A DNA stretch of 64,000 bases from an uncultured Candidatus Saccharibacteria bacterium (GCA_964567265.1 CAZMLK010000001.1:459723-523722), one strand, 5' to 3'; numbered from the stretch's first letter, positions 1,971-36,830 are shown. Translations and numbers: made by a program. The notes: generated by a model from the letters alone, not told the origin.

Positions 1971-2909
1971 TTAATCGAATAGCTTCACCAGATAGTCGTC
2001 GATATCGCGCTGATCCATGTCATAGAAATGCTTGCCGCTCTTGTGGAGCGCAGTCGCGAGCTCGATGCCGACATAGCGCCAGTGCCACGGCTCGAAAATG
2101 TAATACGCATTCTCCTTCGGGTAGGACATGATGAATCCATACTTGTATGCGTTCGCGAGCACCCACGGATAGACCGCGGTCTCATCGAAGCCGTCGAGGA
2201 CGCCGCCCTGCCCGGTCGAGATGAAGTCGATCGTCGTGCCAAGCTGGTGCTCGGAATACCCCTGGTCGGCAGAGAACTGGTTCGCCGTCCCAGCGCCATA
2301 GGTCACGGTATAGCTGTCCTTGATGTTGTTCTGCTCCTCGAACGAACGGAAGCCTGATTTGACGTAGAGCTTCTGCCCGGCTGCCTCAGCCGCATCAAGA
2401 AGCGCCTTCAGGTGCGGCCACACCGATTCATGGATCTTGATCGTCTGGCTTTCCGAATACAAGTACTTCTTGTCGATGAGGGCCAGCTTTGCCGGCTGGT
2501 AATGCTCATTCAGGAAGAAGACCTTTGAATATTTCTGGAGGAGCTCGGGATCGGTCTTGGAGAGCTTCTCGAGCGTATTCACGGACCCCGAGATCTTGGA
2601 TGCCTCGGCCTTCAGGCCGCCGACCTGGGATTCGATGGTCTTCGCGTATTCCTGGCTCTTGTTGAGATCCTCAGCGAGCGCGATCGCCTGCTTCTCGGCA
2701 GCGGTGAGGTTCTGCGACAGCACGCCGATCACGGCGTCGGTTTTCGCGGTCGTGGATGCGAAATCGAGCCTGAGCGTCAGGAGCTCGATCTGGAGGGCGC
2801 GGAGCTGCTTGGCTGAATGCCAATATTGGAAACCGAGCCCGCCCGCAAGGAGAACGATGGCGGCGATGATCGCCCAGAATATGATGGGAATGTGTGCGAC
2901 TTTCTTCAT
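1971..2909 (-). CDS. D-alanyl-D-alanine carboxypeptidase, VanY / peptidase M15B-like, membrane-anchored
   Basis: 'SGFRSFEEQ', 'SEHQLGTTIDF' and 'EPWHWRYVG' are M15B/VanY motifs; TM helix after 'MKKVAHIPIIFWAIIAAIVLLAGG'. Confidence 0.8.
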   Translation of the reverse strand: MKKVAHIPIIFWAIIAAIVLLAGGLGFQYWHSAKQLRALQIELLTLRLDFASTTAKTDAVIGVLSQNLTAAEKQAIALAEDLNKSQEYAKTIESQVGGLKAEASKISGSVNTLEKLSKTDPELLQKYSKVFFLNEHYQPAKLALIDKKYLYSESQTIKIHESVWPHLKALLDAAEAAGQKLYVKSGFRSFEEQNNIKDSYTVTYGAGTANQFSADQGYSEHQLGTTIDFISTGQGGVLDGFDETAVYPWVLANAYKYGFIMSYPKENAYYIFEPWHWRYVGIELATALHKSGKHFYDMDQRDIDDYLVKLFD

Positions 2910-3007
2910 AGCCTGCTCCTCCGAGTATATCATGACCGCGTTTTTGCAAACCGCGAGAAATGCACCCGTTCCGAAAACTGCTCGGCTTTTGTATACTGTC
3001 CCTTCAT

Positions 3008-3433
3008 ATGAACAAGAAACAATTCCTCGAGGCGCTCCGTGAAGTATATACCCGGCTCGGAGTTGGCGCGCACGGTGTCGGTGTCTTCGCGATTCGAGAC
3101 ATCCCGAAAGGCACCGACGTCTTCAAGAACTGCGATCCGCATGGAGACGTGCTCGAGATAACGGAGGAAGAACTGACTTCGTTCGACGCGCCGGATGCCG
3201 CGAAGCTCCTCGTCCGCGATTTCTGCGCGTTCCAGGACGGCGTCTACTTCGTTCCCGACTACGGCATCGATGCTCTGCCGAAGTCCTACTTCCTCAACCA
3301 CTCCGATACGCCGAACATCATGACGCCCGACAAGGGAGAGACGTTCCTTGCTGCGCGCGACATCACAGCCGGCGAAGAGCTATCGGCGAACTACGACGAC
3401 TATCACGAGGCGAGCCACTTCGAGCGGAAATAA
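3008..3433 (+). CDS. SET-domain protein (putative protein-lysine methyltransferase)
   Basis: 'FLNHSDTPN' (NHSxxPN SET motif), 'GVFAIRDIPKGTDV' and 'ELSANYDDY' post-SET-like region. ATG at 3008 (MNKKQ). Confidence 0.7.
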   Translation: MNKKQFLEALREVYTRLGVGAHGVGVFAIRDIPKGTDVFKNCDPHGDVLEITEEELTSFDAPDAAKLLVRDFCAFQDGVYFVPDYGIDALPKSYFLNHSDTPNIMTPDKGETFLAARDITAGEELSANYDDYHEASHFERK

Positions 3434-3507
3434 TCGAAAGGTAAAACAGAGTGAAAAGAAAAAGGCGCTCCCCTTGGGGAGCGCCTTGACGTCAATGAAC
3501 CTGATGG

Positions 3508-4929
3508 TCAGTTGTTGCCGTTTTTCGCCGGCGGCAGACTTGCGATCCACGCAAGGAGACTCGCTTTCATGGACTGCAGTCGGGCGGGCATCGAGGAATT
3601 CAAGAGAATCTTCGTTCCCCGATCATTTTGGAGGTTATAGAGATTGTAGGTCGTACCGTCCTGCAAGCGCTCCAGGAAGTACGGCCAGTCGAGCATGGCG
3701 GCGATGACCTTGTTTCGCCCCCAGGCGAAATACTTGCGTTTCGGGACGGCAAGAGACGGATTCCTGAGGTAGGGCAAGAGGCTGATGCCATTCAGCTTGT
3801 ACGACGCGGGCGCGGCATAGGTACCGCCCGATGCCGCATCCATGATGGTCGGAAACCAGTCGTACATGAATGCCGGCTGGTTGAAGGTCGTGCCGGCCCT
3901 GATATCGCCAGCCGGCCAATAGACGCTCGCGGGAACGAGTATGCCGCCCGGATCCGCATGACCCTTGTTCCCCATCTCGGGAAGATTGGAGCACTTTAGG
4001 TTCTCAGTCACGTGGAGAACCGGGTCGGACAGCCCGTTGCCGCAATCGCCACCGTTATCGCTCTCCGTAATGAAGAGAGTATTGTCGTGATCGATCTCGA
4101 GCGCCGCCGCGAGCACCATCCCGACGATGTGATCGAGGTCATAGTACATCGCGAGGATCATGCGGAGCTGCGGATCCGCGACGCTCGCGAATGCCGCCAG
4201 CGCTTCCGGCGTTGCTTGCGCGGGCGTATGGACCGAATTGACCGGCAGATAGAGAAACGTCTTCTCGTCCCGATGCGCACGCATCCACCGGATCGCGGTT
4301 TCGGCGAAGTAATAGCCGATATGCTTGTCGTCAGCGATGCTAACGACTTCTTCGCGGAGTCCGACGCCTCCATGGTAGATCTGGTTGTTGGTATCGTCGA
4401 CGTCGCAACCGATCTTGGTATAGCAGTGATGCCCGTCATAGAAGACCCAGGACTCGCGGAATCCGCGCTGCCAGGGCTGGCGCCCATTCTCCAGCGACTT
4501 GTCTGGAGCACCTCCCATGTGCCACTTGCCGACAACTGCCGTCAAGTATCCGAGATTCGTCAGCTGTTCAGCCAACGTGGGATATTGCGTCGGCACGCCG
4601 GTCACCGGCTTCGTGTCCGCGATATTGCCCCGAAGGCCAATGAGCGGCGAACTGCGGCCGGTTGCGAGCTCAGCCCGTGACGGCTGACAAAGATGCGGCG
4701 CGAAGGGAACGGTGAACCGTATCCCCTCAGCCGCGATCCAATCGAGATTCGGCGTCTTACTGCCGAACTTCTTCAGATTCGTACCGTTCGAGTAGCCTTC
4801 GTCATCTCGAAGGAGAAAGACGATGTGCTTCGGCGCAGGGGCCGCAGCCGCCCCTGCTGACTGCGCCACCACTGCTCCGAAGAACAGCAGTGAGGCTGTC
4901 AGCAGTGCCAATGATTTTCCGAGTCGCAT
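3508..4929 (-). CDS. Sulfatase (arylsulfatase family), secreted
   Basis: Signal peptide. 'PHLCQPSRAELATGR' carries the C-x-P-x-R formylglycine motif, and 'GKWHMG' is sulfatase signature II. Confidence 0.8.
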   Translation of the reverse strand: MRLGKSLALLTASLLFFGAVVAQSAGAAAAPAPKHIVFLLRDDEGYSNGTNLKKFGSKTPNLDWIAAEGIRFTVPFAPHLCQPSRAELATGRSSPLIGLRGNIADTKPVTGVPTQYPTLAEQLTNLGYLTAVVGKWHMGGAPDKSLENGRQPWQRGFRESWVFYDGHHCYTKIGCDVDDTNNQIYHGGVGLREEVVSIADDKHIGYYFAETAIRWMRAHRDEKTFLYLPVNSVHTPAQATPEALAAFASVADPQLRMILAMYYDLDHIVGMVLAAALEIDHDNTLFITESDNGGDCGNGLSDPVLHVTENLKCSNLPEMGNKGHADPGGILVPASVYWPAGDIRAGTTFNQPAFMYDWFPTIMDAASGGTYAAPASYKLNGISLLPYLRNPSLAVPKRKYFAWGRNKVIAAMLDWPYFLERLQDGTTYNLYNLQNDRGTKILLNSSMPARLQSMKASLLAWIASLPPAKNGNN

Positions 4930-5075
4930 AGCGATATTCCCTTACTATGCATGTCAACGTTCGAACGCTCCGCGTCAAGGATTTCTTGCCGCGTTCCGCA
5001 AAGGACTATGCCACAGAAATGCTTTTTTGTCATTTTCTTAGATCGACTCGCGTGTTCCCTGCTATCATAGTGAGC

Positions 5076-5708
5076 ATGCATATCCGTATCGGCGTTGCTG
5101 TCGGGGTCATCGCGCTCCTCGCGTTCGGCCTCTTGGTCGTTGCTGCCCGGGAGCCGAACGGAACGACGCTCGTTCCCCCGGCAGAAGGTGGAGGCGTGCC
5201 AGCTGAGCCGGCAGCGAAAAAGGCCGACTCGCCGAAAGTCGCCACCTCGACGACGAGCACGCCATGGAAGGAATTCAAGAAACCGAGCGAAGCCGATCTC
5301 CGAGCGGAGCTTTCGGCAATCTCGTTCGAAGTCACGCAGAAGGAAGGCACGGAGACGCCATTTAGTAATGCATACTGGCACAACGAAGAGGCTGGCATCT
5401 ACGTCGATGTGGTTTCCGGCGAGCCGCTGTTCTCATCGCTTGATAAATATGATTCCGGCACGGGTTGGCCATCATTCACGAAGCCGCTCGTTGCGGAAAA
5501 TATAATATTCAAGGAAGACTACCTCCTTGGGATGAGGCGTACGGAAGTGCGCTCCCAGCATGCAGACTCGCATCTGGGACATGTCTTCGACGACGGCCCC
5601 GCGCCGCTCGGCAAGCGCTACTGCATGAATTCCGCAGCGCTCCGTTTCATTCCAAAGGCAGACCTGGAAGCGGAAGGTTACGCCGAGTTCGCGCCGCTCT
5701 TCAACTAA
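5076..5708 (+). CDS. msrB: Peptide methionine sulfoxide reductase MsrB, membrane-anchored
   Basis: 'GTGWPSF', '[21 protein letters not shown]' and 'RYCMNSAAL' are SelR/MsrB motifs. N-terminal TM helix; ATG at 5076. Confidence 0.85.
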
Positions 5709-5850
5709 GCGCTCTCAGAAAATACCTGGCTACTCACCGGGTATTTTCTTTTGCATGGAATGTAATATTTTTTCGAAGAGCCTGTAGTAGTTGATGTCAC
5801 TGGTGCGGTTGGTCGGGCAGTGACCCATTACCAACTCACGAAATACCACT

Positions 5851-6264
5851 ATGAAATTCACGAACACACTGATGCTCGGCATCGGGACACTCGGCCTCCT
5901 CGCTGGAATCGGCGGAACGGCTGCACTCCAGACATTCGCTGCTGACTCCACGACAACGGGAGCGACTGCGACAAGCGGGAATGTCGTTACCCAGGCGGCA
6001 GCGAAGATCGATCAGTCACTTGGCGGACACATCGGAGCGAATGGTACGAAGGAAGAGCTGCTCACCAGCGATACCGCGGCCAAGGTCACGGCTGCTGCAC
6101 TCGCAGCTGAGCCCGGTGCGACCATTGAGCGCGTCGAGACCGACGCGGAAGGCGCTGCCTATGAGGCGCATATCACCAAGGCCGACGGGACGCGCGCGAC
6201 GCTCAAGTTCGACACGAACTTTACGGTCACCGCGACCGAGACCGGCGGACCAGGCGGACGCTAA
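5851..6264 (+). CDS. Secreted PepSY-like domain protein
   Basis: Signal peptide. 'AAKVTAAALAAEPGATIERVETDAEGAAYEAHITKADGTRATLKFD' follows the PepSY pattern. Confidence 0.5.
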   Translation: MKFTNTLMLGIGTLGLLAGIGGTAALQTFAADSTTTGATATSGNVVTQAAAKIDQSLGGHIGANGTKEELLTSDTAAKVTAAALAAEPGATIERVETDAEGAAYEAHITKADGTRATLKFDTNFTVTATETGGPGGR

Positions 6265-6352
6265 CCTGAAGCCAGGCATCATGAACCACAGCATGCTGTA
6301 TTGAAAATACTCCGGATGTACACCGGAGTATTTTCATATCAACGAGGTGCGC

Positions 6353-6694
6353 TTACCTGCGGATGATGAAGGACGTGACCCACGGCTTCCCATCCTCACC
6401 GACCGAGTAGGTGAAGTCAGCAACGAACGCATTGTGCCCGTCCTCGTATTCAACTGTTCCCCTGCCGCTATCGGTCTCGATCTTCGTCACGTAGAAGGTG
6501 CCGCCGAGGACCTCCTTTTCCGGCGAGAGGTCGCTGATCTGCTGCCGTACGTAGGATTCAATATCCATGTATCGCGGCGATTCGTGAGAGGGGGCATCAG
6601 CTTTTTCTGGAAGCATGACGAATAATTCGAACGCCGATAGTGCACCGATGGCAAGAAGCGCGATCCCGAGAAGTGTTTTTTTACTGGTCATCAT
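6353..6694 (-). CDS. Hypothetical membrane-anchored protein
   Basis: Single N-terminal TM segment; no recognisable motif. Confidence 0.45.
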   Translation of the reverse strand: MMTSKKTLLGIALLAIGALSAFELFVMLPEKADAPSHESPRYMDIESYVRQQISDLSPEKEVLGGTFYVTKIETDSGRGTVEYEDGHNAFVADFTYSVGEDGKPWVTSFIIRR

Positions 6695-6858
6695 GGTGGC
6701 TGGCCGGAGTACGGATCGAAGACCGGTTGGTATAATTGTAAGTCAGGGATGCATTAAGCCAAAAGGCCCTGTCCGCTTCCCTGGCCGGCCCCTAGCCACG
6801 AAACGGGAATTCTGTGCTAGAATAGGGCTTTATAATCCTTATTCAATTCATTCTTTCT

Positions 6859-7158
6859 ATGGCAACAGCGAAGAAGGCACCGGCAGCAAAGAAAGCAGCT
6901 GGACCAAAAAAGGCGAACTCAGCGTTTATGAAGCCGCTCGCAGTGAGCGATGAGCTCGCCGTCGTCGTCGGCAAGGGCCCGATGCCGCGCTCAGAAGTCG
7001 CATCGAAGATCTGGGTGTACATCAAGAAGCATGATCTCCAGGATCCGAAGAACAAGCGCGATATCATCGCGGATGAGGCCCTCATGGCCGTATTCGGAGG
7101 CAAGAAGGTGGTGAACATGTTCGAGATGACGAAGCTCGTCTCGAAGCACCTCTCATAG
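6859..7158 (+). CDS. SWIB/MDM2-domain protein with an N-terminal Lys/Ala-rich histone-H1-like tail
   Basis: 'MATAKKAPAAKKAAGPKKA' tail, then 'KIWVYIKKHDLQDPKNKRDIIADEALMAVFGGKKVVNMFEMTKLVSKHL' (SWIB fold pattern). Confidence 0.8.
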   Translation: MATAKKAPAAKKAAGPKKANSAFMKPLAVSDELAVVVGKGPMPRSEVASKIWVYIKKHDLQDPKNKRDIIADEALMAVFGGKKVVNMFEMTKLVSKHLS

Positions 7159-7177
7159 CCCAAAGAGTGAGGAATAG

Positions 7178-23989: not shown

Positions 23990-24571
23990 CTACTTCAGTT
24001 TCTGCCTCTCCACGGTATGCGCTCGCACGGTGCTGAGTCCCCCTGTCTCCGTTCCCACTCCATAGTTGATGCCGTTTACCAGGAAAGTTCCGCTGGTATC
24101 TGATGCACGGGCGGCAATGACATCGGAATCCCGGATGATGATTCCGTTATTCTTCGTACGGACCTTGCTCCGATTCTTTTCAACCTCCCCCACCCCCTTC
24201 CAATCTAGGAGAATGGCGAGATCGAATCCTCCTATGTTCGTCGTTAGGTTCAATGATGCCTTCTTGAGCCCATTCTGACTGAACTGGCCATCTGTCAGCG
24301 GAACCACGCTGGCGAAACTGTAACTCGAACCGATATCGCAGATATTGTTGAACGTCCCGAACACAAATGCTTGTGTCGGCGGAAGCGGACCTTTGGGGAG
24401 TATGCGCTCTGTCTCGACAACTGAAACGCCGACGACCACATCTTCACAGCCTTGCACGGATGAAAAATAGGCTTCCGCCTGTTCTTCCGAATAGCCGGTA
24501 GTGGTCGCCGCTGCCATAGCCGAAAAAGGCAAGGCAACCAGCATAAGCACTGAGAAAATACTCGCTTTCAT
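23990..24571 (-). CDS. Secreted hypothetical protein
   Basis: Signal peptide 'MKASIFSVLMLVALPFSAMA'; no known motif. The track ORF extends upstream to 24688. Confidence 0.45.
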   Translation of the reverse strand: MKASIFSVLMLVALPFSAMAAATTTGYSEEQAEAYFSSVQGCEDVVVGVSVVETERILPKGPLPPTQAFVFGTFNNICDIGSSYSFASVVPLTDGQFSQNGLKKASLNLTTNIGGFDLAILLDWKGVGEVEKNRSKVRTKNNGIIIRDSDVIAARASDTSGTFLVNGINYGVGTETGGLSTVRAHTVERQKLK

Positions 24572-24723
24572 AACTTCATCGTACGAAATGGACGATGAAG
24601 AGGGGGTGTGGTTGAGCGAGAGTATAGGCAGCAAATACACCACATCATTTTGGCTTAAAATTGGACGTGTCCCCTTCCCCTTCCCCAAAGAAAGCAGATA
24701 CTTTCACATTCCGAACTTCTCAT

Positions 24724-24776
24724 AAATAAAGAAACCGCCCGACCGAGGAGCCAAGCGGTTCCTTCGTGTCGGGCGG
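24724..24776. terminator. Rho-independent terminator for minus-strand gene 24781-25275
   Basis: 9-bp stem CCGCCCGAC/GTCGGGCGG with a structured loop, followed on the minus strand by TTTCTTTATTT. Confidence 0.5.
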
Positions 24777-24780
24777 GATG

Positions 24781-25275
24781 TCAGCCAATGGCTCTCTGGA
24801 GAAGAGCTTTCAGCTCCTGGGCAGCGGGCTGCTTCATCGTCTCCTCCAAGCGAGCGAGCGCTGCGGGGGAACAATAACTGGCGCCACCACCCTGGATTTC
24901 CAGACGAGCACTCACGGTGTGGACTCCTTCAAGGCCCATCGCCGCGAGTTTTTCAGCGAGGATGCTGATGTAGCGGTTGTAGGCGTAGAACTTGTCAGCC
25001 TTGAGGTGATAGGTTGGACGGATTTCAACCGTATAGTTCCTATCAATCCAAGGAGCCGCGTCTTGCATCTTGGCTTCGCTCATCCAGTTGATGCTCGGTG
25101 CGAGGCTTCCGCCTTCCCAGTAGGATACCCACGGGTTAGCTTTGTCTACTTCCTTGATAAGCTCACAAAGATGAGCTCCATCAAGATGTGCTTCATTCAT
25201 CACACTGAAGTTGATGAAAGCTTGTACACCGAAACACTGCTCATTCCACGACTTGTTGTGCTGATTGGCCTCCAT
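24781..25275 (-). CDS. Hypothetical protein
   Basis: ATG at 25275, with an AAGGAGG Shine-Dalgarno sequence and a consensus promoter upstream. No family recognised. Confidence 0.5.
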   Translation of the reverse strand: MEANQHNKSWNEQCFGVQAFINFSVMNEAHLDGAHLCELIKEVDKANPWVSYWEGGSLAPSINWMSEAKMQDAAPWIDRNYTVEIRPTYHLKADKFYAYNRYISILAEKLAAMGLEGVHTVSARLEIQGGGASYCSPAALARLEETMKQPAAQELKALLQRAIG

Positions 25276-25319
25276 TGGAGAACCTCCTTAATTTCAAAAG
25301 GGCGATTTTACCCTCTATA

Positions 25320-25348
25320 ATTATATACTAAAATGGTAATATTGTCAA
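25320..25348 (-). promoter_or_regulatory. Consensus sigma70-type promoter (TTGACA-N17-TATAAT) reading leftward into gene 24781-25275
   Basis: Minus-strand TTGACA at 25348-25343, a 17-nt spacer, TATAAT at 25325-25320, and AAGGAGG at 25287-25283. Confidence 0.5.
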
Positions 25349-25510
25349 ATAGGTTCGGGCGTCCGACTACTGTCCAAAAAATAAATAGCTCAAACAAAAA
25401 AGATTTTTACTGGCTCCCACGATGGAACGAGTTCCGAACCATACATTGGGCCGAATTATTCGAATTTCCTGAAGTTTCAATGGTTCAAATACAACAATTA
25501 ACTTCCGATG

Positions 25511-25909
25511 TTAAACAAAGTTAATTAGGAAATTGTACATACCCATACCGCACACTCCTTGTAGTGGTTGACCGATTTTAGGAGTGCCGACATCAATAGT
25601 GTCTTCTCCGGTTTGGGGCAATATTTTCTGATAGCCAAGCGATCTAATTACTAAGGACGCCGAGCAGTCATAAGTACCGTTTGTTTTCACGACGAGCTTC
25701 GTCGGAATGCCACCCTTTGCTGTGGAGCTTTTCGGAGAATAGCCAGCTTTTGCATCGATAGTGATGTATTGCACGCCGTCTCGTATCTCGACATTCTGAG
25801 CTGCTCCCGTCGAAGCTGTCGGAGCGTTGCCCTTCGACCCACCGAGAAAGATAATGCCGAGGCCGACAACGAGGGCGAGCGTGAGGATGATCGAAGCAGT
25901 TTTGTTCAT
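25511..25909 (-). CDS. Secreted small cupredoxin-like / metal-binding protein (tentative)
   Basis: Signal/TM, then 'VVKTNGTYDCSASLVIRSLGYQKIL' and 'GVCGMGMYNF', with Cys/Met/His ligand candidates. It lies in the metal operon. The family call is weak. Confidence 0.4.
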   Translation of the reverse strand: MNKTASIILTLALVVGLGIIFLGGSKGNAPTASTGAAQNVEIRDGVQYITIDAKAGYSPKSSTAKGGIPTKLVVKTNGTYDCSASLVIRSLGYQKILPQTGEDTIDVGTPKIGQPLQGVCGMGMYNFLINFV

Positions 25910-25927
25910 AAGATAATTATATCAAAA

Positions 25928-26941
25928 TTAAATATTAAATAAGGGACGGATGATCCCCAATCCTGCGAGACCAGCAAGGAGTGCAAAGATGCCGAGGCCG
26001 ATCACCACGATCCCTGCTGACTTGAAGAAAAGCGGAGCATGTTTTGAATGTGCAAACGACACCGAACCGAAGGAAAGGAGCGCGAGCATCGGCAGGGTTC
26101 CAAGCGCGAACGAGAGCATGATCAGAAGTCCCGAGATGAATGATCCGCTTGAAAGCGCGGCGACCTGCATCGCTTGCGTGAATCCACAGGGCAGGAAGAA
26201 TGTACCGATACCGATAAGTATTGGAGCGAAAGTCGAGTGCTCAATTTTTCTGAAATAAGCAAAGATGCCGGTTGGCAAAGCCACTTTGCTTTTCTTAATG
26301 ACACCTATGAGATTGAGTCCAAGGAGTATCATCACACTTGATGCGATGAGACCGAGAATCGCCGAAAAGGTAAAGCTGATACCGATTGCCTTGCCGACCA
26401 GCCCCAACACTCCTCCAAGGACTGCAAATCCGAAGAGTCTACCGCCATGAAAAAGCACAAACTGTTTTTTGCTCGTTTTAGTGCTTTCATCTTGTGCGAC
26501 TTTCGCAGAAAGGGAGAGAATTAAGCCACCTACAATCGCCAGACAGCTTGAGACAGACGCAATGAGACCGATGATAAAGCTCGTTGTCGGTGTTGTCGTT
26601 CCACCAATTCCGAGGTTTAAAATGCCTGATTTTTGTAATATGAAAAACAGGATTAAGAACGCGAGACCAATGGGTATCGCTTTCCAAATAATATCGTCAG
26701 ACTTCTTTTCTTGAATAATCTTCTCGACTGAAAGGGTGTAGCCGTTTGGTTTTATTTTGGCTGTGAGAAGTTGCGCAATCTCCTCGAGGTTTTGATTACT
26801 ATCGGTCTCAATGGTGACCGTTTCTTTTTTCAAGTCAACCTGCGATTTTTGAATGAATGGCTGTTCGTTCAAAACATCTTCAATAAGGATTTTGCATGAT
26901 GCACAGTGAGTGCCAGAAACATGGAATGTAAGTGTTTTCAT
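25928..26941 (-). CDS. Heavy-metal-associated (HMA) domain fused to a CcdA/DsbD-like thiol-disulfide transporter membrane domain
   Basis: N-terminal 'GTHCASCK' (MxCxxC-type HMA motif). The TM domain has 'VSSCLAIVGG' and 'FFLPCGFTQAM', the two CcdA cysteines. Confidence 0.7.
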   Translation of the reverse strand: MKTLTFHVSGTHCASCKILIEDVLNEQPFIQKSQVDLKKETVTIETDSNQNLEEIAQLLTAKIKPNGYTLSVEKIIQEKKSDDIIWKAIPIGLAFLILFFILQKSGILNLGIGGTTTPTTSFIIGLIASVSSCLAIVGGLILSLSAKVAQDESTKTSKKQFVLFHGGRLFGFAVLGGVLGLVGKAIGISFTFSAILGLIASSVMILLGLNLIGVIKKSKVALPTGIFAYFRKIEHSTFAPILIGIGTFFLPCGFTQAMQVAALSSGSFISGLLIMLSFALGTLPMLALLSFGSVSFAHSKHAPLFFKSAGIVVIGLGIFALLAGLAGLGIIRPLFNI

Positions 26942-26950
26942 AAGTTTGTT

Positions 26951-27853
26951 TTATATAACTGCATCAGGCTCCAATTTGCAGAAACGGCCTGTCCTATCTT
27001 TTTCGACCTGCAGGGTTGCGTGACCTATATGGAATCGCTCTCGTAATTTCTCTACCGCATCCTGTAAGACAGAGTCATCGACAACCGCCTCTGCTCTTAT
27101 AAGATGTGCGGTTAAACCTGTTTCTTTGGTGCTTATGCTCCAAATATGCAAGTCGTGAACTGCAACAACACCAGCAAGACCCTTGAGATATTTTTCAACA
27201 TCATCCCTATCAACAGATTCGGGAACCGCATCAAGTGATAGATTAAGAGATTCGCGCATGAGAGACCACGTGGTGAAAATGATCACAGCGGCAATGACAA
27301 TACTGATTACGGGATCAATCCATGCGAATCCTGTTAGCGTAATGAGTAAACCTGCAATGACTACTCCAAAAGAAACACCTGCATCAGCAGCCATGTGAAC
27401 AAATGCACCTCGAATATTGATGTCATTCTTTCGGCCTCTAAGAAACAGCAATGCGGTTACTCCATTGATAACGATACCAACGACCGCTACCCACATGACA
27501 GTACTACCCATAACATTCGCAGGAGCATTAAATCTATGCAAAGCTTCTACAAAAATTCCTCCAGCCGCTACAAAAATAAGAATTGCATTGAAAAGCGACG
27601 TGAGAATAGAACCTCGCCCAAATCCATACGTATGTTTTTTACTTGGTGTCCGAGTAGCAAACCAAATTCCCGCCCATGAAATGAGAAGTCCGAAAACATC
27701 AGTTGCGTTATGGATCGCGTCTGAAGTAAGAGCAAGCGAATGAGAGGCATACCCAAACCACAATTCGGTAATAACAAACAATATATTCAGAGCAAGCCCG
27801 ATAATAAAGGCCAGATTATAATTTTGAGTTTTATGAGAATGATCGTGCGCCAT
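26951..27853 (-). CDS. Cation diffusion facilitator (CzcD/ZitB-like) metal efflux transporter
   Basis: 'HSLALTSDAIHNATD' and 'HMAADAGVSFGV' are CDF signature helices, followed by a C-terminal cytoplasmic domain. Confidence 0.8.
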   Translation of the reverse strand: MAHDHSHKTQNYNLAFIIGLALNILFVITELWFGYASHSLALTSDAIHNATDVFGLLISWAGIWFATRTPSKKHTYGFGRGSILTSLFNAILIFVAAGGIFVEALHRFNAPANVMGSTVMWVAVVGIVINGVTALLFLRGRKNDINIRGAFVHMAADAGVSFGVVIAGLLITLTGFAWIDPVISIVIAAVIIFTTWSLMRESLNLSLDAVPESVDRDDVEKYLKGLAGVVAVHDLHIWSISTKETGLTAHLIRAEAVVDDSVLQDAVEKLRERFHIGHATLQVEKDRTGRFCKLEPDAVI

Positions 27854-27857
27854 AATA

Positions 27858-30167
27858 TTAGAGCTTTGTATTTTTAAGACGCAGCGAATTGGTTACGACC
27901 GTTACACTCTCGAATGCCATAATCGCTCCGGCAATAGCAGGACTTAGAGTCCAGCCAAAAAATGGAAAGAGAATACCGGCTGCGACAGGAATACCGACAG
28001 AGTTGTAGCCGAAAGACCAGATAAGATTTTGCCATATTGTTCGATTGGTCTTTTTTGCAAGATTCACGGCTTCGGCGACTTTGCCGATATCGCCTTTGAG
28101 AAGCACAATATCAGAGCTTTCAATTGCTATATCCGATCCGTCGCTCATTGAGATCGCAACATCTGCTTGTGTAAGAGCTGGCGAATCGTTCACTCCATCG
28201 CCAATCATTGCAACCTTGAAACCCTTCTTTTGAAGATCAGATACGATGTTTAACTTATCCTCTGGCTTCACATCGGCAAATACCTCGTCGATACCAAGCT
28301 CCCGCCCTACCGCATCAGCGGTTTTCCTGTGGTCGCCTGTAGCCATAATAACTTTGAGACCGAGAGATTTGAGTTTAGCGATTTCTGTTTTTGCTTCCGC
28401 CTTGATAGTGTCGTGAATTTTTACGAGCGAGAGCACTTCTTTGTCGTTTGCAAGATAGAGTTCGCGTCCGCTTTCAAATCGACCGTCGTGGAAATCTTTT
28501 CTAATCTGTTCCTCCGACTGCTTGATTACACCGCTCACATAAGCGATCGAGCCGAGGTAGTAGGACATATCTTGGTAGGAGGAAGTAAGGCCCTTTCCCG
28601 GTACTTCTTCAATATCAGAAATGTCAACACTTTTCGCTTTTGCGTCCTTGAGCCAATTTGCAATGCTTGCTGATATAGGATGCTTCGATGATTTCGTCAT
28701 CGAGTAGATGAGCGACTGCTTAAAGCTGGTATCCTCGATATCACAGACATGATTCTCGTCCTTACAAAATATTCCCTCGATGGACAGCTTGTTTTCTGTA
28801 AGCGTACCAGTCTTATCGAATACAATCGCACTTACCTTTGAAAGCTTCTCAAGACTCTCTGCGTTCTTGATGAGAATGCCACGACGCGCACCAGTACCGA
28901 CGCCGGTAATGATTGCAGTCGGAGTTGCGAGACCAAGCGAGCAGGGACAAGCAATCACCAAGACCGCCATAGTGGTAGAGATTGCTAGGGCGAACGCTTT
29001 TGTCATTCCAAATGTTCCCGGCGCAAATATCATCCATGAAGCAAATGTAATGACTGCAAGCACGAGCACAATGTATACGAAATAACCAGAAATCTTGTCG
29101 GCAATCTTTTCTATAGGTGCCTTTGAATTCTGGGCATTATCGACAATGCTAATGATGTGCGCGAGAGCGGTATTCTTAACATCTTTTTCAACCTGCACTT
29201 TCAATAGCCCCTGAAAATTCTGGGTCCCTGCAAATACCACGGCTCCTGATAACTTATCCACAGGCACTGACTCTCCGGTAAGATTAGACTCGTCAACGCT
29301 CGACGAGCCATAGATGACCTTACCGTCAACAGGGATCTGCTCGTTTGGCTTCACAATAACCACGTCGCCAACCTCAACTTTCTCAATAGGTATTTCGATC
29401 TCTTTTCCGTCTCGTTCGATCACAGCAAACTTACTGGTAAGTTGTGCGAGCTTTTGGAGAGCCTCGTTTGTCTTTTTCTTTGCTCGCGCTTCGAGGAACT
29501 GACCGAGGGCAATGAGACCTATCACTATAATAACGACATCATAAAAATTTGAACTAACATCCAGATATTTTGAAAGCGGTGCCTCGAAAGCTGTTACTGC
29601 AAGAGAGTATATAAATGCGACGATAGTCGAGATTCCAACAAGCACATCCATGTTGGCGATACCAGTACGCAAGAAAATCCAGGTAGCTTTGATATATCGC
29701 CGACCGATTCCAAAAAGCACAAAGCTCGCAAAGATCGGCATCAGATGATGGAAGAATTCGTAGATCGTTTCAGGCATTTTCGGGATGATGCCGTTATTGG
29801 ACAGAACATCCCAGAACATCATTACGAAAGAGAAAATAACCATTGGTATGACGAATTTCATTTCGAGGGCCATGTTCCTCACTCCGCTTCCCCTAGAGTG
29901 ATCCATGCGAGCATGATCCTCCGCAGACATATTCATTTCAGCAGCAGTTGTGGCTGTATCTTCAAACTCATAACCGAGGGGGGAAATCACGCTATTGAGA
30001 TTTTCTAACGGAAGCGGTGACGCAGAGAAAACCACCTTTGCTTTTTCATTACCCAAGCCAACCGATACCGACTCAACCCCCGGCACTTTGGCTATTTTGT
30101 TTTGAATAAGAGAGACACAGCTCGCACAGTGCATCCCTTTTACCTTGTATGTGTTTGCTGTAGTCAT
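27858..30167 (-). CDS. copA: Copper-translocating P1B-type ATPase
   Basis: N-terminal HMA 'GMHCASC'; 'CPC' in TM6 ('IACPCSLGLATP'); 'DKTGTLT'; 'GDGVNDSPAL'. Confidence 0.9.
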   Translation of the reverse strand: MTTANTYKVKGMHCASCVSLIQNKIAKVPGVESVSVGLGNEKAKVVFSASPLPLENLNSVISPLGYEFEDTATTAAEMNMSAEDHARMDHSRGSGVRNMALEMKFVIPMVIFSFVMMFWDVLSNNGIIPKMPETIYEFFHHLMPIFASFVLFGIGRRYIKATWIFLRTGIANMDVLVGISTIVAFIYSLAVTAFEAPLSKYLDVSSNFYDVVIIVIGLIALGQFLEARAKKKTNEALQKLAQLTSKFAVIERDGKEIEIPIEKVEVGDVVIVKPNEQIPVDGKVIYGSSSVDESNLTGESVPVDKLSGAVVFAGTQNFQGLLKVQVEKDVKNTALAHIISIVDNAQNSKAPIEKIADKISGYFVYIVLVLAVITFASWMIFAPGTFGMTKAFALAISTTMAVLVIACPCSLGLATPTAIITGVGTGARRGILIKNAESLEKLSKVSAIVFDKTGTLTENKLSIEGIFCKDENHVCDIEDTSFKQSLIYSMTKSSKHPISASIANWLKDAKAKSVDISDIEEVPGKGLTSSYQDMSYYLGSIAYVSGVIKQSEEQIRKDFHDGRFESGRELYLANDKEVLSLVKIHDTIKAEAKTEIAKLKSLGLKVIMATGDHRKTADAVGRELGIDEVFADVKPEDKLNIVSDLQKKGFKVAMIGDGVNDSPALTQADVAISMSDGSDIAIESSDIVLLKGDIGKVAEAVNLAKKTNRTIWQNLIWSFGYNSVGIPVAAGILFPFFGWTLSPAIAGAIMAFESVTVVTNSLRLKNTKL

Positions 30168-30172
30168 ATAGG

Positions 30173-30448
30173 TTATTTTCGCTTAAGTTTATAAACCTTA
30201 AGCACTTCATCTTTTGCCTTATTCGACTGACCCGTGGACATTTGATGATGAACGCAATGATCAAGGTGATTTTCTAATAAAATATCCTCCACATTTGAAA
30301 GTCCTTGTTTGACTGCCGATGTTTGAGTGATCACATTGATGCAGTACGTATCGCTCTCAACCATTTTTTGTAGTCCGCGCACCTGACCTTCAATCAGCTT
30401 GAGTCGGCGAATGACTTTCGCCTTACTTTTTTCGTCCATGTATTTCAT
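30173..30448 (-). CDS. csoR: CsoR/RcnR-family metal-sensing transcriptional repressor
   Basis: 'RRLKLIEGQVRGLQKMVESDTYCINVITQTSAVKQGL' and 'HLDHCV' give the Cys/His/Cys Cu(I) ligand pattern. Confidence 0.8.
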   Translation of the reverse strand: MKYMDEKSKAKVIRRLKLIEGQVRGLQKMVESDTYCINVITQTSAVKQGLSNVEDILLENHLDHCVHHQMSTGQSNKAKDEVLKVYKLKRK

Positions 30449-30457
30449 ATAACAATA

Positions 30458-30475
30458 ATACCCCCTAGGGGGTAT
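30458..30475. promoter_or_regulatory. Perfect 18-bp GC-rich palindrome ATACCCCCTAGGGGGTAT, 10 bp upstream of the csoR start; candidate CsoR operator
   Basis: It resembles known CsoR operators (TACCC..GGGTA-type dyads) and sits at the head of the csoR-copA operon. Confidence 0.5.
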
Positions 30476-30524
30476 ATGTCAAATGAAAATAGTAAAGTCT
30501 GAAGTGGAAGAGTATGATTAGCTC

Positions 30525-33326
30525 ATGGCTAAGTACAGTCGCGCTAAAAGAATCGAAAAACAGGAAGTGGGAATACTGGAGACTCTCCTGAACGCCCATC
30601 CTCTGCTCACGCAACTCACTAAAGGAGACGATGATTTCCCGCTTATCGATGGATACGTCCATTTACTCAAAGAGCAAGACGAGGTGGATGGGAATATGCT
30701 CAAAGTGCAGGTAAAACCCCTCAAGATCAACAAGGATGGCACACTCTCCGCGACATGTAGCACCGACCTTTTGAGTCACGCGCACGGCTCCTCTATACCC
30801 GTCCTTTTGGTCGCGGTGAATCCGGACGAGCAGATCGCGTACTGGATGTATCTCGCGCCTGAGGCCGTGAAGACCCAGTACGAAGCGCAGATCGCGGCCG
30901 GTAAGAAGACGATCACCTTTCGACTGAATAAAAGTAATGTCATCAAAAAAGGTACCGATAAATATATCGCGGAGTGGAAGCGCATTTGCGGTCATCATCG
31001 GAACACTTCGAACGATCGCCTTGCCGGTAGATACAAAAAACGCATCAAGAAAAATCTCATAACAGCGAATGAGGACACTTTACTCGAACGGATTCGGACT
31101 CTACACGACCTCGTATACTACCGAACGAATAAAGGCGAGTTCCCACTAGTGGAGATCGTGCTCGAGATGGCGCGTACGATCGGTGGCACTTCTGCGTCCG
31201 TGAAGATCGCGTATATCGAGTTGCTTGAGCAACTCATTCACGACAAGACGTCCGAAGCTCTGGAGGTAATCACAAAACTCGCGTCCGATGAGAGCGAGCA
31301 AGTTCGAAGGAAAGCAGCGGAAACATTGAAGAACGCCGCGAAATACAACTACCATTGGCTCAATGCTATCGGTTACGGTCCGTACCGCACCATGCTCAAC
31401 TTTCTCGAGAGCCATGATGTTCCGTCAGAGATCGCGCACGAGATGTTCCGTAACCTCCTTACCCCCGATTTCGACGGCACTTCGCAGACAGACATGTACA
31501 CGCTTACTTTTCACCGCGGTGCGCTGGACGCAACAAAGTTCCTCAAAGATCTTCGTCATGATGCAATAAATCTCCTAACTAAGCGATATGAGACGACAGA
31601 TACGATTCGCGAGAAAAGTAAAATCGTGGATACGCTTGGCTATGCAACCCACAAGACCGACTGGCCGACCGGTGATCCCGACTTCATCCAAAGGTCTGTA
31701 GATATGGTCGAGGCCGACACTCAGCTTGTTGTTGCAGCATATAAAAAGATCCTTTTCCCAAAAGGCAAAATGATCTCTGACTATCCGGTAATCTACGAGA
31801 TCGAGACACAGGTATCGATCTTGAACACGAGAGAGCGCAAGATCGCAGGCGTTGACGAGCTGCTTCAACAGATCCGCGAGGACAAGGGCGACTATCGATT
31901 GTTTAGCTTACTCGCCGGAGACGAGATGCGTTTGCGCCGCGACGTTGAGTGGCAAGAGGGGCGAAAGCAAAAAGAAGAGGAGATCAAGGAGATCCTCGAT
32001 TCGATCACGGAAGAAAATGCTGACGACTGGTACAAGCGCATAGACACCATCGCCAACTTTCGAGAGTGTATCGAAGACTGGCTCTATCAGACACTACGAG
32101 ACTTTCTCGCACAAATCGCAGAAAAGAAACCGGCAGTAGCTGCCATATTTGCAAAGCTCGCGCTCAAAAATAAGACAGGCCTGTATTTCTTTTTTCGTGG
32201 CATACTCTGGGGTCTTCGGAAAGGTTCACTCGAGCAGTGGGATGACCATGTTGAATACATTGCGAAGCATCGCCTCACAGATCAAATAGACGGGATCCTC
32301 ATGTCGTATTTCTCGATAGGAGGAACCGAACTATCCGCCGCCAAACTTCGCAAAGAAGATATAGCGCTTACCATTGAGATTGCGAAGAAAGAGGGGCGCT
32401 TTGCTTTCCTAAAGGGTTCAGAGATGAACCGCGCGCTCGAGTATCATTCGATCCGATCGCTCACATTTCTCTCAACGTTGGATAAAGCCGTTCGAAAAGC
32501 GCTGATCGAAAAAATAAAAGAGTACCCCGAACTAGACACCATGTACTCTAACGAACTCGGTTTTGCCCTGCATTGCAAATGGATCAAGTTGGATGAATGG
32601 GATCGACCAGATCTCGAAGCGCTTGCGGAGATGCTCGTAAACATAAAACGTCTCGATCACTACGAGATGCAAGTTCTTCACGAGCTGGGTATCTTTGACT
32701 TTGATCTAATGATGTCTGTGTTTGAGCGCCGTATAAAACATCCCTACGATAGTGGCTACGACGCAATCCCGTATCACATAGAGGCCGGTGTCGCGGCATT
32801 CATACGCGACGATCCTCGCACCAAAGACGTTGTCCGACGCTGGCTCGAAGAACGCAATCCCGATCAAGACGGGATGATCGGCTATCACTTAGGCGAGTTT
32901 GTGAATCGCATAGGAGGCACGGTGCTACGCGAAGCTCTCTCGGAGTTGATCGCTACTGGCAAGAAAGAAAACATCCTCAAGGTAATGGAAATGTTGCCTA
33001 TTTCTGATCCGGCAGACCCCTCCCTGTGTCTTGAGATCGTGGCCGCAACGGATGACAAGCAAATCTTGGCTAGAGTCGACGCACGGATGCGACAGACCAG
33101 TGGTGGCACCGGCTCCGTCGGCGAAAATATCTTCGCGCGGGAGATGCGCAAAAACCAAGCTCGTATCGAGGAAATAAAGTCGAGAGCGACGAATCCCAAG
33201 ATCGTAAAGTTCTGTGAGAAAGTACTTGCCAACCTTACACAGGACATCGCGAGATCCGATCGCGAGCATGAGCGAGAAATGCGGGAAGAACGAAAAGAAT
33301 ACGACGAGGAACACGACCTCGAATAA
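30525..33326 (+). CDS. Large (933 aa) protein: N-terminal DUF4365-like PD-(D/E)xK nuclease-fold domain, then a long HEAT/ARM-like alpha-helical region
   Basis: The N-terminus 'DDFPLIDGYVHLLKEQDEVDGNMLKVQVKP' fits the DUF4365 'D.ID.....(Q/E)VK' pattern. Later 'SEQVRRKAAETLKNAAKYN' and repeated helical hairpins follow. No P-loop. Confidence 0.65.
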   Translation: MAKYSRAKRIEKQEVGILETLLNAHPLLTQLTKGDDDFPLIDGYVHLLKEQDEVDGNMLKVQVKPLKINKDGTLSATCSTDLLSHAHGSSIPVLLVAVNPDEQIAYWMYLAPEAVKTQYEAQIAAGKKTITFRLNKSNVIKKGTDKYIAEWKRICGHHRNTSNDRLAGRYKKRIKKNLITANEDTLLERIRTLHDLVYYRTNKGEFPLVEIVLEMARTIGGTSASVKIAYIELLEQLIHDKTSEALEVITKLASDESEQVRRKAAETLKNAAKYNYHWLNAIGYGPYRTMLNFLESHDVPSEIAHEMFRNLLTPDFDGTSQTDMYTLTFHRGALDATKFLKDLRHDAINLLTKRYETTDTIREKSKIVDTLGYATHKTDWPTGDPDFIQRSVDMVEADTQLVVAAYKKILFPKGKMISDYPVIYEIETQVSILNTRERKIAGVDELLQQIREDKGDYRLFSLLAGDEMRLRRDVEWQEGRKQKEEEIKEILDSITEENADDWYKRIDTIANFRECIEDWLYQTLRDFLAQIAEKKPAVAAIFAKLALKNKTGLYFFFRGILWGLRKGSLEQWDDHVEYIAKHRLTDQIDGILMSYFSIGGTELSAAKLRKEDIALTIEIAKKEGRFAFLKGSEMNRALEYHSIRSLTFLSTLDKAVRKALIEKIKEYPELDTMYSNELGFALHCKWIKLDEWDRPDLEALAEMLVNIKRLDHYEMQVLHELGIFDFDLMMSVFERRIKHPYDSGYDAIPYHIEAGVAAFIRDDPRTKDVVRRWLEERNPDQDGMIGYHLGEFVNRIGGTVLREALSELIATGKKENILKVMEMLPISDPADPSLCLEIVAATDDKQILARVDARMRQTSGGTGSVGENIFAREMRKNQARIEEIKSRATNPKIVKFCEKVLANLTQDIARSDREHEREMREERKEYDEEHDLE

Positions 33327-33342
33327 AATAAGTTTCTAGGTA

Positions 33343-34080: not shown

Positions 34081-34119
34081 ACTCAAGGATAAAAATAAGC
34101 TTAACTGCATCCCATTCCT

Positions 34120-34151
34120 AAAACGACTAGCATAAACATGCTGGTCGTTTT
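34120..34151. terminator. Rho-independent terminator
   Basis: AAAACGACTAGCAT-AAAC-ATGCTGGTCGTTTT (one mismatch). Confidence 0.55.
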
Positions 34152-34155
34152 GATT

Positions 34156-34410: not shown

Positions 34411-34412
34411 CC

Positions 34413-35064: not shown

Positions 35065-35276
35065 TTTCTTGTTCATTTTCTCGAACAAATTGCTCACGTA
35101 AAGAAATTAAAAAAACTAAATAAAAATAAACATGAAAATAAACCAACGACGCGCAAAAAAGATTGTTAAAGCTTTCACGGCATTTCTCGATTCTCAATAC
35201 AGAGAAACCTTGAGTCAAAGCATTAAAAGAGGGATCGCACGAAAGCGATCAGCGACGCTTAGACACAATAAATAAT

Positions 35277-35762: not shown

Positions 35763-35763
35763 T

Positions 35764-36829: not shown

Positions 36830-36830
36830 T

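Follow-up and report, generated by a model that had tools for sequence, protein, structure and literature searches.

Proteins with SET and SWIB domains have been known in bacteria since the first chlamydial genome. In the 64,000-nucleotide stretch of DNA analysed here (the window), which derives from a Paceibacterota (Parcubacteria) type genome of the Patescibacteria, a groundwater-type ultra-small bacterium, a small SET-domain gene and a small SWIB-domain gene are found with their coding sequences 3.4 kb apart, inside the 4 kb noted by a first-pass annotation. That annotation took the proximity to suggest a nucleoid-protein methylation or remodelling system, and the locus therefore raises the question of whether the two genes act together. 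The evidence assembled in this work favours two real and complete genes, each transcribed separately, that probably lie near one another by chance and form no dedicated two-gene system.

The gene layout (Table 1) was considered first at the level of transcription. Four unrelated genes on both strands occupy 3508..6694 between SET and SWIB, and the sulfatase, MsrB, PepSY-like and 113-aa genes belong to no SET/SWIB unit. The plus-strand SET gene is flanked by VanY and sulfatase genes, both on the minus strand, and the plus-strand SWIB gene is bracketed by two minus-strand ORFs. Because each is flanked by opposite-strand genes, SET and SWIB are each transcribed alone. The hairpin occupies the gap that separates the SET stop codon at 3433 from the sulfatase stop codon at 3508; it has a minus-strand T-run and is a likely terminator at which the SET transcription unit ends.

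Table 1. Positions of the SET and SWIB genes, their parts and the genes between them, counted from the first nucleotide of the window.
Feature	Position	Strand	Basis
SET-domain protein lysine methyltransferase (predicted), 141 aa	3008..3433	+	ORF open from 2960; Pfam, homologue starts
GC-rich hairpin, 11-bp stem	3462..3487	.	between convergent SET and sulfatase genes; terminator scan
Sulfatase	3508-4929	-	Pfam/NCBIfam matches
Membrane-anchored MsrB	about 5076-5708	+	ORF open from 4947; Pfam/NCBIfam matches
PepSY-like	5851-6264	+	Pfam/NCBIfam matches
Hypothetical protein, 113 aa	6353-6694	-	ORF call
SWIB protein, full CDS, 99 aa	6859-7158	+	Pfam SWIB
Lys/Ala/Pro-rich N-terminal tail of SWIB protein, residues 1-20	6859..6918	+	composition; homologous tails
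SWIB/MDM2 domain, residues 25-98 of 99-aa protein	6931..7152	+	Pfam SWIB 1-74/74

The SET domain proposed by the first-pass annotation was recovered by profile search, with ORF 2960-3433(+) matching Pfam SET (PF00856) over profile positions 1-104 of 105 (E=2.1e-10, 41.4 bits, gathering score 22.4) and its NHSDTPN sequence fitting the NHSxxPN core. The ORF itself is real but its start had probably been placed too far upstream. Among the 1,304 homologue clusters, those listed are mostly 140-150 aa and typically 141, beginning MNKKQFL, and the sister contig L001 agrees with the window at about 90% of nucleotides within the CDS but at 77% in 2900-2999. The length and start of the homologues, together with this 5' drop in identity, place the true start most likely at the ATG at 3008, giving a protein of 141 aa. 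In this numbering all cofactor and catalytic motifs are found, with GxG present as G23-V-G25, N97-H98-S99-D-T-P-N103 lying within YFLNHSDTPN, and G122-E-E-L125...Y129 within GEELSANY129. An alignment of 26 homologues contains 45 invariant columns that include NHS, N103, GEEL, Y129 and Y132, and in the HMMER alignment to SETD8 the NHS falls over NHS and Y129 over the last Tyr of ELLYDY. Codon differences to L001 comprise 34 synonymous and 10 non-synonymous changes, and the gene is under purifying selection. The concern that the protein might be a fragment of a larger unrelated enzyme can be set aside, as it is intact, complete and stand-alone, with homologues of the same length.

An AF2 model of the SET protein (pLDDT 81.4, pTM 0.72) gave 290 Foldseek matches at E<=0.001. 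The SET fold is a beta-clip with a C-terminal pseudoknot, and the comparison was one of overall structure: all 50 of the PDB matches listed were SET domains at a probability of 1.00, but with TM scores of only 0.34-0.50. In the PDB, human SETD8 ranked first whether sequence or fold was compared, at a sequence identity of only about 22-26%, and vSET and S. pombe Set7 were also among the fold matches. The window protein resembles Go1-SET, PBCV-1 vSET and the SETD8 catalytic domain in being a stand-alone SET domain of ~120-160 aa that lacks pre-SET and post-SET zinc clusters and carries the GxG, NHSxxPN and ELxxxY motifs. It differs from these archaeal, viral and eukaryotic enzymes in an invariant insert of its own family, VRDFCA.Q.G..(V)P...DA..K. 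By sequence, this is a Paceibacterota family of about 1,300 clusters, very uniform at 141 aa among those listed, on which no publication was found in the literature search.

The 141-aa protein would be a minimal SAM-dependent protein-lysine methyltransferase. The absence of pre- and post-SET zinc clusters and of a signal peptide makes cytoplasmic action on an endogenous substrate most likely. Since the enzyme keeps an identity of 53-74% across orders, this substrate is probably a conserved and abundant one. Precedent points to basic nucleic-acid-binding proteins as possible leading candidates; Go1-SET of Methanosarcina mazei methylates the prokaryotic chromatin protein MC1-alpha (PMC3980110). 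Nucleoid-associated proteins can be named as a tentative substrate class, ribosomal, translation or chaperone proteins are a possible but doubtful one, and host proteins would be an improbable one.

The eukaryotic SET-domain enzymes Rkm1-4 and Efm1 methylate translation components. An alternative is that the window enzyme likewise modifies a part of the translation or chaperone machinery (a ribosomal protein, elongation factor or DnaK, for instance), with SWIB unrelated to it. The very high conservation of SET, seen in its identity across orders and its invariant columns, argues for just such a universal, conserved substrate. The genomic contexts offer further points, in that 2.5-3.8 kb separate SET from L20/L35 in one subclade, where it is also near SmpB (9/41 loci), and one gene of a second small SET family stands immediately after grpE and ahead of dnaK. 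However, the ribosomal genes are near SET in that one subclade only and are never adjacent to it, so the proximity looks like inherited synteny, and the literature examined yielded no case of a bacterial SET enzyme acting on a ribosomal substrate. This alternative is therefore considered unlikely as a full account of the locus.

The episymbiotic lifestyle of Patescibacteria introduces a different alternative, in which SET, and possibly SWIB, would be effectors against host chromatin proteins, for instance archaeal histones, in the manner of chlamydial NUE or Legionella RomA. Most of the bacterial SET proteins characterised so far are nucleomodulins aimed at the host (PMC3980110). For Patescibacteria SWIB proteins it has been asked whether the DNA concerned is self or host (PMC12455944), and some Patescibacteria are reported to parasitise methanogenic archaea. 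NUE is secreted by a type III system and acts on host histones (PMC6426960, PMC2904774), whereas no signal peptide or obvious secretion signal was seen at the N-terminus of the window SET protein and no secretion or pilus genes are linked to SET. Effectors also usually evolve fast, whereas this family is strongly conserved. A role against the host is accordingly judged very unlikely indeed, and an endogenous substrate is the preferred reading for SET.

The second ORF encodes the 99-aa SWIB protein anticipated by the first-pass annotation and covers the whole of Pfam SWIB PF02201 (E=2.6e-28, profile positions 1-74 of 74). PDB sequence matches were to UAF30 (7z0o_G, E=6e-15), to BAF60/SMARCD SWIB domains (8.1e-05 to 8.7e-04) and to two unnamed RAFL proteins (about 1e-04). 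The CDS has no non-synonymous differences in four sister contigs, and the protein is intact, full length and under purifying selection. Its family comprises at least 8,000 homologue clusters from several phyla, with 75-96% identity among the best 120. The protein starts MATAKKAPAAKKAAGPKKAN (residues 1-20), a stretch that is 30% K and 85% K/A/P/G and that agrees with the Lys/Ala-rich tail first described. Tail length ranges from 0 to 38 residues, in AKKA/VAKK repeats, across the 120 closest clusters, and in 39 of these the tail reaches 12 residues or more and consists of the same (A/V)AKK(A/V) units. On these sequences the Lys-rich tail is no chance feature.

The comparison of this tail with histone H1 held for composition but not for profile matching. 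The Hc2 profile (PF07382) gave no match to the window SWIB protein even at E<=10, and the longer-tailed homologues P0135 and P0202 reached 25-26 bits against Hc2, below the cut-off of 40. The resemblance to H1/Hc2, as read from sequence, is in composition only. Residues 3-99, tail included, align to the extreme C-termini of topoisomerase I/III SWIB fusion models (NCBIfam PRK06319 and PRK14724, E=2e-19 to 3e-22), but the window protein is free-standing and, because the topoisomerase body is absent, scores far under the equivalog cut-offs of these models. The tail and SWIB module also aligns to the C-terminus of the PADLOC orphan DNA methyltransferase model, and in three related contexts SWIB adjoins Ogt-like and AlkD-like DNA-repair genes. 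It is reasonable, from these alignments and by analogy, to regard the SWIB protein as nucleoid or DNA-associated, with the tail presumed to be an electrostatic DNA-binding one.

Characterised proteins of similar build are consistent with this assignment. The small SWIB protein Wcw_0377 of Waddlia binds heparin, and ChIP-seq placed 1,920 peaks for it across the whole genome (PMC6426960); it and Chlamydia CT460 share the size class and single SWIB domain of the window protein, which differs in its AKKA-repeat tail and for which targeting to a eukaryotic host nucleus does not apply. Arabidopsis SWIB-4, which has an H1 motif beside its SWIB domain, is described as a DNA-binding core protein of the chloroplast nucleoid (Melonek 2012, via PMC4758235). 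The window protein is alike in placing an H1-like basic stretch beside the SWIB domain. SWIB-4, however, is a plant nuclear-encoded organelle protein with a defined H1 motif, whereas low-complexity AKKA repeats of varying length make up the tail here.

Co-localisation of the two genes was then assessed across genomes. SWIB was present within 10 kb of SET in two of the 87 SET loci of other genomes (928 kb of flank searched), against a chance expectation of 0.8-1.5 (Poisson P(>=2)=0.18-0.46), and in one of the 41 species genomes. None of the four intervening window genes was found near SET in the 87 other loci, and the other neighbours in the window likewise have no conserved position beside SET. 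No recurrent immediate neighbour of SET and no HU gene next to it was found, nor a Lys/Ala-rich small ORF beside it, except for one 40-aa Lys-rich ORF (duplicate contigs L010/L048). When contexts were centred on SWIB, four of five independent lineages had no SET within 6-10 kb, the exception being one Pacebacteria lineage, in which a different, non-orthologous SET family lies 4.3-8 kb from SWIB. Neither of two distant members of the second SET family has SWIB nearby, their contexts being DoxX/Cyt-b5 or grpE-dnaK. The SWIB family is also far wider than the SET family, and SWIB therefore does not depend on this SET family. Overall, the co-localisation of SET and SWIB is consistent with chance.

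Closer pairs do occur. In locus L040, where SET and SWIB stand in tandem on the same strand, about 95-124 bp separate them, and in L074 they are 2.5 kb apart. Together with the window and the Pacebacteria lineage, proximity within 10 kb is thus seen in three separate lineages, which, with the L040 tandem, leaves room for a weak real association. Such pairs speak for a reading in which lysines of the SWIB AKKA tail, or of another histone-like protein, are methylated by SET to tune DNA binding, as an analogue of histone-tail methylation. The two window genes are complete and show purifying selection, the Lys-rich tail recurs across the SWIB family, and there are precedents in the action of Go1-SET on MC1-alpha (PMC3980110) and in the reported action of chlamydial SET on Hc1/Hc2, for which the Hc1 and Hc2 results are discordant (noted for Hc1 in PMC6426960). 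Chlamydiae have already been recognised as carrying SWIB and SET together (PMC6426960), and the window shares with the chlamydial set (cpnSET, NUE/CT737, SWIB and TopA-SWIB) the same "eukaryote-like" domain pair in one bacterial genome, with histone-like proteins as proposed targets. It departs from that set in that no Hc1/Hc2 homologue was found here and no topoisomerase fusion is present within the window.

Against such a system stand the absence of co-transcription in the window, the 85/87 SET loci with no SWIB in reach, which is the chance level, the much greater breadth of the SWIB family, and the distant second-family SET members that occur without SWIB. Moreover, the SWIB proteins of L040 and L074 have no Lys-rich tail (MVRKANPALLKPMEL... 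and MVRTANPALLRPMEL...). The methylation or remodelling system put forward in the first-pass annotation is consequently not upheld by the gene neighbourhoods, and methylation of the SWIB tail by SET is rated improbable. As the two are separate genes of common families that are seldom neighbours, a dedicated "bacterial chromatin" system is without genomic evidence. Missing synteny is compatible with a trans-acting enzyme-substrate pair. A broader version, in which the lineage-wide minimal SET of Paceibacterota writes marks on the expandable AKKA tails of SWIB-type or other basic nucleoid proteins encoded at unlinked loci, altering compaction or partner recruitment, is deemed very improbable.

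Two independent genes remain the preferred explanation. Alongside the predicted methyltransferase, the 99-aa SWIB protein would serve as a nucleoid-associated adaptor, its variable AKKA-repeat tail binding DNA non-specifically by charge and its SWIB domain, a protein-protein interaction fold, docking a partner enzyme or regulator onto the DNA. As things stand, these are two ordinary members of known families in proximity. What the locus adds is a very uniform 141-aa SET family in Patescibacteria, AKKA-repeat tails that expand and contract on small SWIB proteins of Patescibacteria and other phyla, and the presence of SET and SWIB without genetic coupling. If the SET substrate were a nucleoid protein, these tiny genomes would offer a tractable minimal model for lysine-methyl control of bacterial chromatin.

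The interval from 2960 to 7158 holds six supported ORFs, consisting of the SET-domain candidate, a sulfatase, a membrane-anchored MsrB, a PepSY-like protein, a hypothetical protein and the SWIB-domain candidate (Table). The start of MsrB is probably at 5076, since a sister contig calls a protein of 210 aa. Upstream of the interval lie genes for VanY, a PEBP protein, a DUF167-like protein, a ribosome hibernation factor and the end of fmt, with a 135-aa membrane protein (minus strand) and a PAS histidine kinase downstream. The remaining genes encode cell-envelope enzymes, two-component systems and glycosyltransferases, and no further chromatin-like protein is encoded in the rest of the window. 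SET and SWIB are separated by four unrelated genes, each of the two is a plus-strand gene flanked on both sides by minus-strand genes, and a strong hairpin follows SET. An operon or co-transcription of SET and SWIB is ruled out by this gene order, the strands and the hairpin.

Features of the window and of related contigs
Feature	Sequence	Coordinates	Strand
VanY, upstream of the interval	window	1971-2933	-
SET candidate (ORF)	window	2960-3433	+
TATACT box	window	2992-2997	
Strong hairpin	window	3462-3487	
Sulfatase	window	3508-4929	-
Membrane-anchored MsrB (ORF)	window	4947-5708	+
PepSY-like protein	window	5851-6264	+
Hypothetical protein, 113 aa	window	6353-6694	-
TGcTAGAAT box	window	6815-6823	
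TATAAT box	window	6831-6836	
Antisense ORF, 106 aa	window	6843-7163	-
SWIB candidate, 99 aa	window	6859-7158	+
Low-GC island	window	24000-38441	
Large serine recombinase (ORF)	window	36813-38408	+
tRNA-Asn(gtt)	window	38369-38441	-
SWIB CDS	L001	6248-6547	
SWIB CDS	L003	3860-4159	
SET and SWIB in tandem	L040	10001-10777	
SWIB and SET	L074	1492-4696	
Divergent SET-like region	L005	6755-7159	
Divergent SET-like region	L047	4865-5269	
Second SET family	L093 (CP064973.1)	1227-1733	
Second SET family	L102	1472-1978	
SWIB with Ogt-like and AlkD-like genes	L096	6001-7468	
SWIB with Ogt-like and AlkD-like genes	L106	2164-3560	
SWIB with Ogt-like and AlkD-like genes	L111	10001-12600	

The SET domain proposed in the first-pass annotation was confirmed by a Pfam SET match (E=2.1e-10) spanning nearly the whole profile, with the core motif present as NHSDTPN. 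A total of 1,304 relatives were found at E<=0.001, and the best 120 of these 1,304 are 134-184 aa long, mostly 140-150 and typically 141 aa. All listed homologs are short, stand-alone proteins, which rules out the protein being a piece of a larger enzyme. The homologs start with MNKKQFL, nucleotide identity to the sister contig L001 is ~90% within the SET CDS and 77% in 2900-2999, and a TG-TATACT box, read by eye and uncalled by the consensus scan, ends 10 nt before the ATG at 3008. From the homolog lengths and their common start, the drop in identity and the position of the box, the SET coding region is therefore most likely 3008-3433, encoding 141 aa. We infer the TATACT sequence to be a candidate promoter. 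The SWIB ATG is likewise preceded by TGcTAGAAT and TATAAT boxes seen by eye and uncalled by the consensus scan, and no Shine-Dalgarno sequence could be read by eye at either start (2990-3010 and 6814-6861). The missing Shine-Dalgarno sequences and the boxes near the starts suggest leaderless or short-leader mRNAs for both genes.

An alignment of 26 SET family members, which share 63-74% identity with the window protein, has 45 invariant columns, including G23-V-G25 of the GxG motif, N97-H98-S99 and N103 of the NHSxxPN motif, G122-E-E-L125, Y129 and Y132. HMMER alignment to human SETD8 placed NHS on NHS and Y129 on the last Tyr of ELLYDY. An AlphaFold model built from the alignment (pLDDT 81.4) returned SET domains throughout the 50 PDB matches listed, among them SETD8, S. 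pombe Set7, MLL1/3/4, vSET, EZH1/2, SETD2 and G9a, with a probability of 1.00 but TM scores of only 0.34-0.50. The window protein lacks a signal peptide and any Cys-rich pre-SET or post-SET cluster, and 34 synonymous and 10 non-synonymous codon differences separate it from its L001 counterpart. Given these motifs, the model, the missing clusters and signal peptide and the codon differences, the window protein appears to be an active enzyme under selection, a minimal SET-domain lysine methyltransferase. A PADLOC defence-system search gave no match for it. The named SET homologs and all 41 genome loci belong to Paceibacterota/Parcubacteria-type Patescibacteria (Lloydbacteria, Adlerbacteria, Kaiserbacteria, Minisyncoccia and MAGs labelled Paceibacterota or 'Saccharibacteria'), and several related metagenome contigs originate from groundwater projects. 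Databases already label these Patescibacteria proteins 'SET domain-containing protein', and no literature was located on SET proteins in Patescibacteria or CPR.

The SWIB assignment was equally borne out, with a Pfam SWIB match (E=2.6e-28) covering all 74 profile positions and the Lys/Ala-rich N-terminal tail, AKKAPAAKKAAGPKKA, present in the 99-aa ORF as first described. The family has at least 7,998 significant relatives; the few with a source name include Omnitrophota and Nitrospira besides Patescibacteria, and identity to the query over the domain is 75-96% in the best 120. Among the best 120 clusters the tail ranges from 0 to 38 residues (median 8) and reaches at least 12 residues in 39. 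Those 39 tails average 31% K+R, 74% K/A/P/G and ~1% acidic residues, and consist of repeat units such as AAKKAVAKKAVAKK. The tail is thus a real, recurrent and length-variable feature. [quoted passage not shown]

Residues 3-99 of SWIB, a stretch that takes in the tail, align to the extreme C-termini of the SWIB fusion models for topoisomerases III and I, and residues 27-98 match the C-terminal 80 positions of the PADLOC orphan methyltransferase model PDLC03723 (E=9e-7). Membership of a defence system was rejected, the PADLOC match being limited to the C-terminal SWIB part of that model; the match therefore indicates that some DNA methyltransferases carry a C-terminal SWIB domain. At three Lloydbacteria-like loci (L096, L106 and L111) the genes downstream of SWIB, in the same orientation, are Ogt-like (PF01035, DNA_binding_1) and AlkD-like (PF08713, DNA_alkylation). 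GIY-YIG genes also occur near SWIB in Lloydbacteria-like contexts, one of which (L107/L108) has LexA-like and DinB genes upstream. These neighbourhoods may represent a DNA-repair association of SWIB. Three observations, namely the fusions, the methyltransferase model and the repair-gene neighbours, tie the tail and SWIB module to DNA. The literature agrees with this: Wcw_0377, a small SWIB protein of Waddlia, binds heparin and gives ChIP-seq peaks along the whole genome (PMC6426960), and Arabidopsis SWIB-4, with an H1 motif beside its SWIB domain, is described as binding DNA in chloroplast nucleoids (Melonek 2012, as cited in PMC4758235).

The SWIB CDS is 99-100% nucleotide-identical to its counterparts in the sister contigs L001 and L003, the flanking genes are 82-92% identical, and the high-identity tract stops at the CDS borders. 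Synonymous differences affect 3 of 100 SWIB codons, where the pooled rate is 22% (P=4e-8). A general nucleotide-level constraint on the CDS, such as RNA structure or dual coding, is excluded by distant homologs, in which synonymous sites are saturated (median identical-codon fraction 0.42 for SWIB, the same as for SET). A gene-sized replacement or transfer of the SWIB allele in the recent past fits better, in agreement with the SWIB exchange reported among Patescibacteria (PMC12455944). An antisense ORF covers the whole SWIB CDS, with a similar one in L040, and probably reflects the conserved Lys/Ala-rich codons of the sense strand rather than a gene.

Elsewhere in the window, a low-GC island at ~24.0-38.4 kb (GC 0.40-0.49, against 0.54-0.60 elsewhere) ends at a tRNA-Asn(gtt) gene, which a large serine recombinase ORF abuts. 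Its cargo includes an HMA-DsbD_2 protein, a CDF cation-efflux protein, a heavy-metal P-type ATPase and a 933-aa DUF4365+HEAT protein. The island resembles an integrative element of a Patescibacteria genome, with metal-resistance genes as its cargo.

Linkage was assessed around SET at 87 loci (from 41 species genomes plus 46 metagenome contigs), each taken with as much as 10 kb on either side, using tblastn of 13 window proteins against the 41 and then all 87 loci and clustering of all flanking ORFs. SWIB was found near SET in two of the 87, which are the only other loci where SWIB is close to a member of the window SET family. L040, a Minisyncoccia MAG, has SWIB in tandem downstream of SET on the same strand, ~95-124 bp away, and in L074 SWIB lies 2.5 kb upstream of SET. 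With 928 kb of flank searched and one SWIB gene assumed per 0.6-1.2 Mb genome, 0.8-1.5 matches are expected by chance against the two observed (P(>=2)=0.18-0.46). The two loci are probably one lineage, because their SWIB N-termini are closely alike (MVRKANPALLKPMEL in L040, MVRTANPALLRPMEL in L074) and their SET proteins are both ~61% identical to the window protein. Neither SWIB protein has a Lys-rich tail.

No window neighbour other than SWIB was conserved near SET when the 13 proteins were compared with the 87 loci, and flanking-ORF clustering gave no recurrent immediate neighbour; the best cluster (13/41 loci) reflects subclade synteny with SmpB and a large protein. These searches led us to reject conserved synteny between SET and SWIB, or between SET and any of its other neighbours in the window. 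A basic substrate gene beside SET was also rejected, as no HU gene adjoins SET at the 87 loci and the sole Lys/Ala-rich small ORF within 2 kb is a Lys-rich one of 40 aa in the duplicate contigs L010/L048. In the near-identical contigs L005 and L047 a second, divergent SET-like region lies ~620 bp downstream of the main SET and is 25% identical to a 168-aa SET family.

This second family emerged around SWIB, where five independent lineages were compared. No SET was present within 6-10 kb of SWIB in the Giovannonibacteria, P0207, pilus-adjacent P0223/P0167 or Lloydbacteria-like contexts. In a Pacebacteria lineage that includes the complete 705-kb genome CP064973.1, a SET gene lies 4.3 kb upstream of SWIB, a distance that grows to 8 kb in a relative with inserted genes. 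The protein belongs to the 168-aa family, a small one with 23 database matches, which has NHSCTPN and a post-SET Cys cluster (CNCGSDKCRK) and, beyond the motif, does not resemble the window SET significantly. Two distant members lie in DoxX-SET-Cyt-b5 (L113) and grpE-SET-(PaaX_M, minus strand)-dnaK (L115) contexts; in the latter SET stands directly after grpE and ahead of dnaK, its start and stop codons abutting the upstream gene. Neither has SWIB within 10 kb, so a reciprocal link through this family was rejected and the Pacebacteria proximity is read as lineage-specific. Both tests therefore show SET-SWIB proximity to be sporadic and not conserved; it occurs in three lineages, one of them that of the ascertained window. 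Genes for DoxX, Cyt-b5, DUF167-like proteins and DnaJ turn up repeatedly near these loci, which suggests leftover regional synteny in Paceibacterota rather than a functional operon.

Bacterial and archaeal SET proteins, small bacterial SWIB proteins, SWIB-topoisomerase fusions and H1-motif SWIB proteins have all been described. For Chlamydiae, the joint presence of SET and SWIB has already been pointed out (PMC6426960), and SWIB genes in Patescibacteria were mentioned within a horizontally transferred gene pool, their role being left open there (PMC12455944). The first-pass observation of SET and SWIB was correct. Its reading of the pair as a nucleoid-protein methylation or remodelling system went too far, the genes being not co-transcribed and found together in 2/87 loci, at chance level.

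The interval is best read as two independent genes, and direct methylation of the SWIB tail by the window SET protein is improbable. Domain identity, conserved motifs, selection, gene limits and the lack of conserved linkage are established here, and the functional steps for both proteins are all ones that we infer. SET would act as a cytoplasmic SAM-dependent lysine methyltransferase, and the degree to which it is conserved across orders speaks for an endogenous substrate that is itself conserved and abundant; a role aimed at a host is less probable. By precedent, nucleoid-associated proteins would be the first substrate candidates, as Go1-SET acts on MC1-alpha (PMC3980110), with ribosomal, translation and chaperone proteins a close second. 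SWIB would most plausibly be a nucleoid-associated adaptor, its basic tail providing non-specific DNA affinity and its fold docking a partner protein, and in other bacteria the same module is covalently joined to topoisomerases and a DNA methyltransferase.
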